A model generated the notes under the pieces. The model ran no database searches, was not told where the DNA came from, and was given only the letters and a program-made list of their open reading frames with translations. A program made the position numbers and the translations under genes. Shown here piece by piece: positions 31,392-39,611 of a stretch of 64,000 nucleotides of DNA. The stretch's first letter is position 1. The number at the start of each line of letters is the position of its first letter. Origin of the DNA: an uncultured Chloroflexia bacterium (lineage in GTDB: Bacteria > Chloroflexota > Anaerolineae > Anaerolineales > E44-bin32); assembly GCA_963807065.1 (NCBI GenBank), contig CAWDZQ010000002.1:177260-241259 (forward strand). The letters run 5' to 3'.

Positions 31392-33714
31392 CTAGGTCCC
31401 GACTTCTACCGGGCATTCGAACAGCCGCTTGTTGATGACTTCGGCCTGCCGGCCCACGACTTCGAATGAGCCTTGTAAGCGAATGTCCTCGGACGAGCTG
31501 CCCACCATAACGATCATCCGACCGGGCTCAAGCACCAGTTCCAGGTCCTGGTTGTAGAATGCCAGCAGGTTTACGGGCAAACTGAATGTGACCTTCTTTC
31601 GTTCGCCGGATTGGAGTTCGATTCGCGTGTAGCCGACGAGTTGCTTCACCGGCCGCGGTGAACTCGCGAACATGTCCCGAGCATAGAGCTGGACAACCTC
31701 CTCACCGGGGAGCGATCCTGTGTTGGTCAATTCAACCGCCACGGCAACGCATTCACCACAGGACACTTGAGGCTTGCCCACCGATAGATTGCTGTATTCG
31801 AATGTCGTATAACTCAGGCCGTGGCCGAAGGGATAGAGCGGGGCGGTCTTCTCTGAGACATAATCGCCGTACCAGTGGGATTTCATGGCCGAGGGTTGGT
31901 GATTGTAGAAAATCGGCAGCTGTCCGACATGGCGCGGGAATGTTACCGGGATCTTGCCCCCAGGATTGACGTCACCAAAAAGGACGTCGGCCACTGCGCC
32001 CCCCCCTTCTTCACCGGGAATCCAGGCTTCGAGAATGGCGTCGGCCATCTCATCAAGCCAAGGAATGGCATACGGGCGCCCGTTGATCAAGACAGCCGCC
32101 ACCGGTTTGCCAGTGGCCAGCACCGCCCTTGCCAGATCTTCCTGCACGCCGGGCAGACGAAGGTCAGCGCTATCGCGAGTTTCCCCAGTAGTGCATTCAG
32201 GCATCAGCCCGGATCGATCGCCAAGAACGAGAATCACCGCGTCAGCTCGATCGGCGGCCGCAAGTGCGCTATCAAATCCACCCTTGTCTTCATCCAGATT
32301 GTCGCAACCTTTGGCATACAGCACTTTCGTCTTCGGCGAGACGGCCGCTTTGATGTTTTCAAGCACCGTGGTCACCTGTATTTCATGTCGAGCAATTGCA
32401 TTGGCATCGACTTCTCACAAATGAAGAATTAGGCGGAGACTGGTAAATCATCAGCTCTTTGGTGGCCTCATAGGAATAATCGCCCAGCAGACCACGGGCA
32501 TGATCTGCGTTGGGGCCAAGAACAGCCACAGTGCCGATGTCCTTCTCGAGTGGCAGGAGCCCATTGTTCTTGAGGAGAACGATGCTCTTACGGGCGATCT
32601 CTCGCGCCAAGCTACGCTGTGCGCCGGTCTCATATACCTCGAGCACACGCCCTTCATCCACGAAAGGATTAACGAACAGACCAAGGTCAAGTTTCTTCTG
32701 CAGGTGTCGGCGCACGGCCGTATCAACGGTTCCGATATCAAGGTCGCCAGCATCCAGCGCGGCCATGAGCGGCTCGGCATAGCAAACCGCTGTCGGCAAC
32801 TCCACGTCGATACCTGCGTCGAGCGCAAGACATGCCGCCGTGGACTTATCCACAGCCAGGTTGTGAAAGTTGTGGATCATAAGAACGGCTTCGTAGTCCG
32901 AGACCACCAGGCCGTCGAATCCGAGTTGGTCTCGTAGGAGTTCGGTCAAAATGCGGCGCGACGCAGCGACCAACTCGCCATCCACTTCGGGATAGGCGTT
33001 CATGATGCTGGCCAAGCCAGCCTCCCCTATGGCGGCTTGGAATGGGGCGAGATACACCTCGAATAACTCATGCCATCCCACATGGACGGGCCCGCAGTTG
33101 AGACCGCCCTGGGATAGGCCGTGTCCGATGAAATGTTTCCCAGTCGCCATCACGCCATCTGTCAGGCTGTCTCCCTGCAACCCGCGGACGTAGGCCACGC
33201 CAAACTGACTGACCAACATTGGGTCTTCGCCAAAGGTCTCTTCTATGCGTCCCCACCGTGGGTCGCGGGCGACATCCAGCACCGGTGCCAGCGCCTGGCG
33301 CGCCCCGATGGCCAGCATCTGTTGGCGGATGGCGCTTGTCATTTGTTGGGCCAATTCGGGCTGAAATGTGGCGGCCAAGCCGAGCATCTGCGGGTAGCAT
33401 GTTCCTCCAAGCACCACGGTCCCGCAACAACATTCCTCGTGAAGAATTGCCGGTATGCCTAAACGTGTGCGTTCCACAAGGAATCTCTGGATCTGATTGC
33501 CGGCTATGGCTGCCGACAGCGGATCTAGAGTTGAAGCGCCGGCGACCCGAGTGATCTGGCCCATGCCGAGGCTGAGTTTCGACTGGATCTTTTCCGGATC
33601 CAGCTTCGCATCCTTTTGCAGCTCATACATCCAGCAGGAGCCCAGTTGAGCCAATTTCTCATCCAAGGTCATCTGTGTTATGAGTTTCTCGATGGAGGGC
33701 AAGATGGATGTCAT
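31392..33714 (-). pseudogene. GH3 beta-glucosidase (BglX-like), split by one frameshift
   Basis: ORF 32383..33714 is the N-terminal (beta/alpha)8 domain (GRIEETFGEDP, KHFIGHG, VVSDY). ORF 31392..32375 is the C-terminal alpha/beta plus FnIII-like part (ILVLGD, INGRPY, EAWIPGEEGG). The frames can only be joined within 32385-32414. Confidence 0.85.
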
Positions 33715-33832
33715 GCAGCCTCTCTGTCCGGACCTTCATGCCTATTTTGGGCATCGAAGTTTCTGGAACGAACCAGGTCCCCTATGAGCCAGACTTTGAA
33801 CCAATGATCATCGAAATACGGTAGAGATCGCA

Positions 33833-35198
33833 CTACGCATTGGCAGGAATGCCATTGTTGTGGATGACTTCTCGGTACCAATTCGCACTGGATTTCGGGA
33901 TTCGCTCCTGCGTGACGTAGTCGATGTACACGAGCCCGAAGCGTTTGGAATACCCAAAGCCCCATTCGAAGTTGTCCAGCAGCGACCAGGCAAAATACCC
34001 TCGCACGGGGACGCCTATCTGGATGGCTTTGAGCACGGTTTCAAGATGGCGTTTGATGTAATCCAGCCGGCCAGGATCATCCACCTGACCGCCTGGGCCG
34101 ACTTGATCCGGATAGGCGGCACCATTTTCTGTGATGTAGATGGCAGGAAAGCCATAGTCAAAGTGCAACCGCCCCAAGATGTTGTAGAATCCCTGAGGGT
34201 AGACCTCCCAGCCCATATCCGTGATCTCATCACCCAAAACAACTTGCGGGGGCTCGTTGTCCGCTTCACTGACAGTGGACGACCTGGCGATCCCGCGTGT
34301 GTAGTAATTGACACCTAGGAAATCGAGCGGTTCTGCGATCAGATCCAAATCATCTGTTTGCACGAATTCCATCGCATTTCCAAAGTTTGTGACCACATCG
34401 TGCGGATAGCCGCGCCCAACCAAGGGATCGAGAAACCAACGGTTGAGGTAACCATCGACCCACGTCGTTTCCTTCCTGTCTGCCGAGCTAACCGATGCTG
34501 GCTCCTGTGGGCTCAGATTCAGGGTGATCCCGACTTCGGCATTCGAGCAATTGGCACGAATGATCGGCACGGCCTGCGCATGTGAGAGCAGCAGATGGTG
34601 GGACGCGGCCAGCGCCTCGTCCAAATCTGTATGACCCGGGGCGTGACGTCCGTAGCGATAACCCACAAACGCGCTGACCCATGGTTCATTCAAAGTGATC
34701 CAATGCTTGACTTCGGTCCCCCAATGCACGGCTGGTTACGTCGGCATACTGTGTGAACGCGTCCACGACTTGGCGCACCGGCCAACCCCCGTCGCCTTGC
34801 AGAGCTTGGGGCAGGTCCCAGTGGTACAAGGTAATGTAGGGGACAATTCCGGCCTCGAGCAGGGCATCCACGAGCCGGCTGTAGAAGTCAACTCCAGCCT
34901 GATTGACATCTCCCCGACCCTCCGGCAGGATGCGGGGCCAGGCGATTGAGAAACGATAGGCTTTCAAACCCAGTCTCGCCATCAAGGCGACATCCTCAGG
35001 CCAGCGATGGAAGTGGTCACAGGCGATGTCGCCGGTGTCGCCGTTGGTAACATTGCCTGGAGTGTGGCTGAAACGGTCCCAGATGCTTTCGCCCTTGCCG
35101 TCCTCCTTCCAGCCGCCCTCGATCTGATATGAGGCGGTTGCAGCCCCCCAAACGAAATCTCGGGGAAAGACCTCTGCGGGCAGTGTGAGTGTCATCAA
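33833..35198 (-). pseudogene. GH1 beta-glucosidase, split by a single-base insertion
   Basis: ORFs 34686..35198 and 33833..34729 are the two pieces. Deleting one T of the TT at 34712-34713 restores ...[15 protein letters not shown] (the acid/base NEP motif). The nucleophile motif YITENG is present downstream. Confidence 0.88.
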
Positions 35199-38537: not shown

Positions 38538-39492
38538 GATAGCAACCCCTCACGATTCCTTCCCTTGAGCGGCCACAACTTCTTCCGGTTTCCGTCACCC
38601 ACATCCCATCGTGTAGGAAGTAGAAGATACCCAGCGCGCATACGCTGGTCATGATGAACACCAGCACGCCGACCGAGGAGGCCGCTCCGATGTGACCCTG
38701 GCTGCTAGCGAATTTCATGTACATCAGAATGTTGTTGGTTTGAATCGAGCTCAACGGGGAACCTCTGCCATCGGTCAAAAGGAACGGGATGTCAAACATC
38801 TGCATGCCGCCCACCAACGATGTCACAAAGACAAATATGAGGATAGGCTTCAATAACGGCAAGGTGATATGCCTGAACATTTGCCAGTCGCTTCCGCCAT
38901 CGACCATGGCGGCTTCATATAAGTGAACTGGTATGGACGTCATGCCTGCCATGAGAATGATTGCCGTCTGGCCGAACCACATCCACCATTGGATGAATAT
39001 CACCAAACCGCGCGTGATCCAGACACTCTCCAGAAACCGCATGGCTTCAGTCAAGAATCCCAGCTTCACCATGAGCTGGTTAGCTGGGCCATAGTAATCA
39101 AACAGTGCGTGAAACAATGCCGCTACGGCCGCAGGCACCAGCAGATTCGGCAAGAAGAACAACGCACGCCATGTCCCGACGGCCTTGATCTTCAACCGGA
39201 CACTGGTGAACAGAACCGACAACAGCATGGCGATGCCGATCTGAGGGATGAAATTCAGCAACCAGATCAACCAGGTGTTCCCCACCGCCCTCACGAAGAC
39301 GATATCGGCGAACAGCCGTTTGAAGTTTGCCAAGCCGGTAAATTTGCTCGTACTCGACATCAAGGTTGTGTTGGTGAAGCTAAGAGCCAGGGTGTTGTAA
39401 ACCGGGTAAAGGCCAAAGATGAGAAAGCCGATGACGAATGGCGCAAGAAACATATAACCGTAGTAATTGCTCCAAGACTTCGCTCTATTCAT
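38534..39492 (-). CDS. CUT1-family sugar ABC permease (MalF/LacF-like) with a probable frame problem at the extreme C-terminus
   Basis: Has the EAA loop (LYEAAMVDGGSDWQMFRHITLP). As drawn, ORF 38389..39525 runs 149 nt into the next gene. A shift near 38600-38620 gives a tail ending in TGA that overlaps the next ATG (ATGA at 38534-38537). The start is uncertain (39492, 39516 or 39525). Confidence 0.75.
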
Positions 39493-39611
39493 CTCGCCCT
39501 CGAGTTTCTCCGTCATCGAAAACAAGTCGCCCGATCAGCCAGTTTGAACGATCGGGGTGGGTCAGTGTATTCTTGGGAATACACTGGCCCACCCTCCCTT
39601 TCAGATTGCGG

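Follow-up and report, generated by a model that had tools for sequence, protein, structure and literature searches.

Single-base frame breaks in a cellobiose locus of an uncultured Chloroflexia bacterium: probable assembly errors associated with GANTC sites

Five consecutive genes of a beta-glucoside/cellobiose locus are each interrupted by one single-nucleotide frameshift in a 64,000-nucleotide stretch of DNA from an uncultured Chloroflexia bacterium (hereafter the window; GenBank assembly GCA_963807065.1, contig CAWDZQ010000002.1, positions 177,260 to 241,259). We consider these breaks to be consensus errors of the assembly rather than mutations of the organism, with a probability of about 0.85. 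This reading is based on the association of the lesions with the motif GANTC and on the absence of three analogous lesions, located elsewhere in the window, from independent assemblies of the same species. The original prediction, made from the letters of the window and its open reading frames (ORFs), had proposed that each of the five genes needs one 1-nt correction, and had offered two explanations, namely indel errors enriched in a lower-GC stretch or the early pseudogenisation of a whole catabolic pathway.

The proposed model is as follows. The window would derive from a long-read assembly, most probably a nanopore-only one, of an Anaerolineae-type Chloroflexota organism in which GANTC presumably carries N6-adenine methylation. 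At some GANTC sites, base-calling or polishing would double the methylated A·T pair, converting GANTC to GAANTC or GANTTC and causing a +1 frameshift; alternatively, the outer G would be called as A, converting GANTC to AANTC. The lesions in the GH3, GH1, and MalG-like genes would belong to the duplication type, and those in the GH94 and MalF-like genes would be ordinary indel errors away from the motif, possibly favored by lower read depth.

Position and repair of the five frame breaks

The sugar locus occupies 27.7-42.3 kb on the minus strand and comprises xylB, a mutarotase-like gene, xylA, the GH3, GH1, and GH94 genes, the MalG-like and MalF-like permease genes, and genes for a solute-binding protein (SBP) and a LacI-family regulator. 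Indel positions were fixed by aligning 14.6 kb of co-linear nucleotide sequence with contigs L006 and L081, the closest public relatives. The interrupted genes are listed here with their lengths in amino acids (aa) after correction.

31392..33714, minus strand: GH3 beta-glucosidase, 773 aa; one extra base at 32412-32413 (split Pfam match, one-edit ORF, gaps in the L006 and L081 alignment)
33833..35198, minus strand: GH1 beta-glucosidase, about 452-454 aa; one extra base at 34712-34713 (Pfam, one-edit ORF, L006 and L081 alignment)
35202..37668, minus strand: GH94 cellobiose phosphorylase, 821 aa; one extra base at about 36797 (gap relative to both L006 and L081)
37691..38537, minus strand: MalG-like CUT1 permease, 281 aa; one extra base at 38043-38044 (Pfam, one-edit ORF, alignment of relatives)
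38534..39525, minus strand: MalF-like CUT1 permease, about 319-330 aa; one base missing at about 38607 (alignment, one-edit ORF)

Domain matches in Pfam are divided between reading frames at these positions. Glyco_hydro_3_C is broken at profile position 44/45, between ORFs 32386-33735 and 31395-32414, and Glyco_hydro_1 at about position 153-158, between ORFs 34689-35201 and 33836-34735. The supersandwich and catalytic domains of the GH94 enzyme lie in separate frames (ORFs 36748-37863 and 35205-37193), with the junction confined to 36782-36820 by PDB alignments to cellobiose phosphorylase, and the BPD_transp_1 domain of the MalG-like permease is shared between ORFs 37992-38549 and 37694-38086. 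A single edit per gene produces one stop-free ORF of 773 (GH3), 454 (GH1), 821 (GH94), 281 (MalG), and 330 aa (MalF); the corresponding intact orthologues in L081 measure 773, 452, 821, 281, and 319 aa. The corrected GH94 sequence aligns to the cellobiose phosphorylase structure 3qde across residues 1-802, and its closest homologues are likewise 821 aa long, at 85-86% identity. The corrected tail of the MalF-like permease stops at a TGA that overlaps the ATG of the MalG-like gene.

The proposal of one correction per gene was thus borne out, as were its predicted positions. The GH3 join, placed within 32385-32414, falls at its extra base; removal of one T at 34712-34713 proved to be the exact repair of the GH1 gene and restores the 14-residue protein stretch expected there; and the extra bases of the GH94 and MalG-like genes lie within the anticipated intervals of about 36780-36800 and about 38030-38045. 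The break that had been called probable in the MalF tail, at about 38600-38620, is present, but it is a deletion and not an insertion. The flanking genes described as intact (xylA, the mutarotase-fold gene, and the SBP and LacI genes) are intact, and so is xylB.

The extra base of three of these genes sits in the same coding context, GAAGTC, where relatives carry GAGTC or a synonymous variant. On the plus strand, the context reads GACTTC at 32409-32414 in the GH3 gene (coding GA[A]GTC), at 34709-34714 in the GH1 gene, and at 38040-38045 in the MalG-like gene. At the MalG site both L006 and L081 have GAGTC, and at the GH1 site L081 reads GAT CGG GTC AAG (D R V K).

A GANTC signature across the window and its absence from same-species assemblies

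The whole window was scanned with a codon-usage Viterbi path and with Pfam on essentially all coding-like ORFs. Eight frameshifts were confirmed in total, seven of them insertions, and six consist of a duplicated A·T pair of GANTC. The frame breaks had been presented as a property of the cluster; this does not hold, given at least three further frameshifts outside it, at 2979, 14052, and 55577.

2370..3312, minus strand: ApbE-family gene; one extra base at 2978-2979, plus strand GAGT[T]C at 2975-2980
11858..14426, minus strand: phosphoenolpyruvate (PEP)/pyruvate-binding (PPDK_N) gene; one extra base in plus strand GAA[A]TC at 14049-14054
54656..55736, minus strand: ABC transporter ATPase gene; one extra base at 55576-55577, plus strand GAGT[T]C at 55573-55578

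Fusion of the ApbE pieces raises the Pfam score to 187 bits, compared with 138 and 46 bits for the separate pieces. In the ATPase gene, the Walker A region lies in the other frame, and the fused ABC_tran match scores 125 bits compared with 77. The PPDK_N frameshift was found through the motif itself. Every GAANTC or GANTTC in the window, 197 sites or about 0.6% of positions, was tested for ORF fusion, which predicted a single new frameshift, at 14051-14052; the prediction was then confirmed by homologues that cross the junction as one polypeptide. GANTC is restored at the GH3, GH1, MalG, ApbE, and ATPase junctions once the doubled A or T is taken out. Homopolymer slippage was ruled out: before the error, no run of at least three identical bases existed at any of the eight sites.

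Motif counts in the window are skewed as well. GANTC occurs 178 times, compared with 318 ± 19 expected from dinucleotide shuffles, and ranks first or second in depletion among the 16 palindromes of the form XYNY'X'; GAANTC is over-represented (197 versus 138). The depletion weakly hints that the motif is a biological target in this lineage, such as one of restriction-modification. No methyltransferase gene was found within the window.

Most importantly, the lesions outside the cluster can be compared directly with other assemblies of the same species. These contigs were reached by a search with an unrelated ORF of the window, which matched a 99%-identical protein, and comprise short-read-type references from NCBI (GCA_964509245.1), Logan (SRR9023183, SRR28022964, and SRR28022905), and JGI (3300033291 and 3300036935). 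They cover 35,996 positions of the window at 99.8-99.9% identity and differ from it at 47 positions. Only three of the 47 differences are indels, namely the extra bases of the window at 2979, 14052, and 55577, each inside GANTC, and the genes at all three sites are intact in the other assemblies: L084 has GAGTC with an intact 313-aa ApbE gene and GAATC with an intact 855-aa PPDK_N gene, and L088 and L089 have GAGTC with an intact 359-aa ATPase gene.

The substitutions point the same way. GANTC covers about 1.7% of the compared bases and holds 11 of the 47 differences, and these are one-directional, with GANTC in the references and another sequence in the window. Among 121 reference GANTC sites, 110 are kept in the window, three are duplicated, and eight carry an outer G-to-A change (C-to-T on the other strand). 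The eight window-private substitutions (4790, 8754, 13602, 23983, 25018, 25469, 27229, and 44867) are contradicted by two to five same-species assemblies, the one at 44867 by five, and probably arose as errors in the same way as the frameshifts. Restriction to a single assembly was accordingly observed for the three outside frameshifts and for the eight G-to-A sites.

The signature recurs in related assemblies according to their sequencing type. L006, a nanopore-only Microflora Danica (MFD) metagenome-assembled genome (MAG), carries the same locus at 79% nucleotide identity and has +1 insertions of its own in the MalF, MalG, and GH94 genes (L006 positions 7622, 8865, and 10223). One of these is GAC[T]TC, where the window and L081 both have an in-frame GANTC; those at 7622 and 8865 are not at the motif. 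Between L083, a long-contig MAG, and Logan contig L081, which is 93.7% identical to it, there are eight 1-nt indels. Each is an extra base in L083, three at GANTC and five elsewhere; these insertions (5671, 13730, 15838, 22254, and others) split the LacI, GH1, GH3, and DUF937 genes. Of 83 loci with GH94, 18 are from MFD, and six of these have a frameshift in the gene, compared with none of about 62 others. The comparison with orthologous clusters of relatives that the original prediction had called for supports the same conclusion, in that no gene is interrupted in L081, L082, or L002, the clusters of short-read type. In MFD MAGs that are less closely related, most frameshifts fall away from GANTC, which indicates that the motif is specific to the lineage and is not a general nanopore context.

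The pattern in the window corresponds to published descriptions of methylation-linked nanopore consensus error. MFD MAGs were assembled with Flye and one round of Medaka, with no short-read polishing (PMC12313526), and errors in nanopore consensus sequences cluster at methylated motifs, GANTC among them, and are biased toward G-to-A (PMC12710330; PMC12392509; PMC6591954; bioRxiv 10.64898/2026.01.14.699587).

Decay of the pathway, a strain-variable island, and other explanations

Early pseudogenisation, the second of the two explanations originally offered, would predict relaxed constraint and additional lesions. Measured against the L081 orthologues, the ratio of nonsynonymous to synonymous substitution rates (dN/dS) is 0.08-0.16 in the five shifted genes and 0.06-0.14 in their intact neighbors. 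Upstream of the shifts it ranges over 0.08-0.17 and downstream over 0.03-0.17, values that are indistinguishable except for the 23-codon MalF tail, and no relaxed constraint in the shifted genes was detected by this measure. After one edit each, the five cluster genes contain neither nonsense codons nor further lesions. Four of the five lesions are insertions, and three share the GANTC motif. Bacterial neutral indels are deletion-biased.

A genuine pseudogene elsewhere in the window looks different. The gene for a sulfatase/LTA-synthase-like membrane protein (8775-10455, minus strand) has an in-frame TGA (about 9933), an in-frame TAG (about 9897), and a frame change near 9500-9600; its full-length homologue P0142 has 552 aa and is 73% identical. 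L084 and L085 show the identical fragments (175 + 122 + 254 aa), and the same state is found in three assemblies.

The whole xylose and cellobiose locus nevertheless resides on a segment that varies between strains, as the same-species comparison revealed.

27981..43111, 15,131 bp: strain-variable segment (the island) with the whole xylose and cellobiose locus
27747-29240, minus strand: intact xylulokinase gene xylB
29247-30212, minus strand: intact mutarotase-like gene
30163-31332, minus strand: intact xylose isomerase gene xylA
39612-41045, minus strand: intact SBP gene
41227-42303, minus strand: intact LacI-family regulator gene

Three independent same-species assemblies (L086, L089, and L090) lack the island and share the identical junction 27980|43112. 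The left breakpoint lies within xylB, of which the last 234 nt remain, and there is no long repeat at the junction. A left end inside a gene points to a deletion in the strains without the island. The 15.1-kb sugar locus is therefore a presence/absence polymorphism within the species, and because the whole cluster is deleted in other strains, the pathway is dispensable. The right breakpoint, 43111/43112, lies in about 1 kb between the LacI gene and an MFS transporter gene (42320-43300) that has no convincing coding potential.

Several points weigh against attributing all five cluster lesions to the assembly. The five sites have no same-species copy on record for direct comparison: exact-sequence look-ups of the cluster SBP, xylB, and xylA sequences gave no match, and neither the corrected GH94 nor a chimeric query spanning the junction gave a protein match above 86% identity. 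Two of the lesions lie outside the motif. The extra base of the GH94 gene is in coding AATA[C]AGCG, and the MalF indel (GAT-GGG in the window, GATCGGG or GACCGGG in relatives) is likewise not at GANTC. The island also has the higher density of frameshifts, with five in 15.1 kb compared with three in 36 kb of compared flanks (binomial p about 0.05), a local excess that is borderline. The dispensability of the pathway makes real decay conceivable, mainly for these two non-GANTC indels, if with a small probability. The papers cited here on methylated motifs describe mainly substitutions and not duplication of the methylated base (PMC12710330; PMC12392509; PMC6591954; bioRxiv 10.64898/2026.01.14.699587). 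Finally, we infer, rather than observe, how the window was sequenced, that GANTC is methylated, and that the five cluster sites are artefacts.

The alternative that accommodates these points best is a mixed case, in which the GH3, GH1, and MalG insertions are artefacts and the GH94 insertion, the MalF deletion, or both are real changes in a dispensable island. It draws on the lack of the motif signature at these two indels, on the complete absence of non-GANTC indels from the 36 kb of compared flanks, and on the loss of segment 27981-43111 in three assemblies by a deletion ending inside xylB. However, the related nanopore MAGs also have 1-nt indels away from the motif (positions 7622 and 8865 of L006, and five of eight indels in L083), two events in 15 kb do not differ significantly from zero in 36 kb (p about 0.09), and no other sign of decay is seen in the edited, stop-free genes or in dN/dS. 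We regard the mixed case as unlikely. Under the error model, lower depth would be plausible if the sequenced population mixes strains with and without the island, and could then account for the borderline excess of errors there.

True pseudogenisation of all five genes, inactivating uptake and the three glycoside-cleaving enzymes at once, is not supported. The dispensability of the cluster, the local concentration of lesions, and the existence of a true pseudogene at 8775-10455 would fit it. Yet it requires three strikes at GANTC within the cluster when, at three GANTC sites elsewhere, that very change is confined to the present assembly, the predominance of insertions is unlike the deletion bias of neutral indels, nonsense mutations and relaxed dN/dS are lacking, and the true pseudogene differs in having in-frame stops common to all assemblies. 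Real decay of the entire pathway is thus very unlikely. From the other explanation originally offered, the errors themselves are supported, whereas the role of lower GC is not, since most of the lesions duplicate the A·T pair within GANTC.

Alternatively, the signature could be a property of the strain. A mutational process directed at GANTC, producing A·T duplications and G-to-A changes at methylated sites, would cause true frameshifts genome-wide. The motif specificity itself is compatible with such a process, and on the present evidence mutation private to a strain is formally inseparable from error private to an assembly. We know of no GANTC-directed mutational mechanism of this kind. Such a process would also have to disable the conserved ApbE, ABC ATPase, and PEP-binding genes and to hit about 9% of GANTC sites within 0.1% divergence. 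Moreover, the signature recurs independently in the nanopore MAGs L006 and L083 and never in short-read assemblies, and G-to-A change near methylated motifs is a documented nanopore artefact (bioRxiv 10.64898/2026.01.14.699587). We judge the process as such extremely improbable, and a scenario in which strain-private mutation of this type frameshifts genes genome-wide while island deletions in sister strains dismantle the cellobiose pathway highly improbable.

Programmed +1 ribosomal frameshifting or transcriptional slippage that restores the proteins would match the common +1 correction needed by all clear cluster shifts but MalF, but it is ruled out, with a negligible residual chance, by the occurrence of the GAANTC motif in all three codon phases across sites, which excludes a ribosomal mechanism, and by the L081, L082, and L002 orthologues, which are in frame at the same positions; nor is there a slippery run, and MalF requires the opposite correction.

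Other features of the window were noted during the scan. Candidate frame switches at 2402-2462, 6245, 21085-21110, 23423, 25824, 45656, 48417, 51595, 56583, and 62024 are ordinary gene boundaries. An HD-domain gene (57-1278, minus strand) appears to read through three frames near 560-610 (...HIQIVANACGKLFRLL / GLTYEDAETWW / VVTVACLHDIG); a double frameshift was not confirmed there, with no Pfam gain on fusion and no indel relative to L084, and the feature is either an old, genuine disruption or an over-interpretation. A second sugar locus at 51050-64000 is intact except for the ABC ATPase frameshift. It encodes YjbQ/UPF0047, TIM-like, GHMP kinase, SBP, ABC ATPase, two permeases, an unknown 490-aa protein, arabinose-isomerase-like, FGGY kinase, DeoC aldolase, and DeoR regulator proteins. 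Strain variation is also seen in the ars region at 46380-48060 (ArsR, low-molecular-weight phosphatase/ArsC, and the start of an ACR3-type SBF transporter) and the adjacent TetR gene. Here the allele diverges strongly from GCA_964509245.1, with hundreds of mismatches between flanks that are 99.9% identical, and is near-identical to JGI contig L090, which suggests a recombinational replacement between strains.

Implications and comparison with known systems

Annotated at face value, the window would describe a cellobiose and xylose pathway that is non-functional or decaying; the evidence points to both descriptions being artefacts. More generally, the combined signature of GANTC to GAANTC or GANTTC and of GANTC to AANTC serves to recognise false pseudogenes among long-read MAGs of the lineage; sites that bear it could be corrected by rule. 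The presence/absence polymorphism of the island is a separate biological point that stands.

Compared with known cellobiose/cellodextrin loci, which combine a CUT1 importer with GH94 and GH1 or GH3 enzymes, gene content and order here are fully syntenic with L006, L081, and L083, and after the five edits the locus shows nothing unusual. Many related loci (L003, L009, L015, L016, L018, L028, L029, L059, and L064) contain two tandem full-length GH94 paralogues.

The interruptions themselves resemble several known phenomena to different degrees. As in programmed +1 frameshifting of the prfB type, one extra base has to be skipped to obtain the full protein, but there is no conserved shift, fixed codon phase, or stimulatory context. 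As in the pseudogene accumulation of Mycobacterium leprae and host-restricted Salmonella, several genes of one dispensable pathway are interrupted, but here nonsense mutations, in-frame decay, and raised dN/dS are missing, the lesions are insertion-biased and tied to a motif, and independent assemblies lack the analogous lesions. The homopolymer indels of long-read and 454-type assemblies likewise create false split genes through single-base indels, although the doubled base here arises from a single A or T within GANTC. The closest likeness is to nanopore errors at methylation motifs (Dcm CCWGG, Dam GATC, and CcrM/HinfI-type GANTC). The frameshifts of the window are unlike the errors emphasised in the cited papers, which are mostly substitutions, in duplicating the presumed methylated A·T pair. 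In common with them, the changes are private to the assembly and concern one short palindrome, include G-to-A miscalls beside the presumed N6-methyladenine, and recur in related nanopore-only MAGs.

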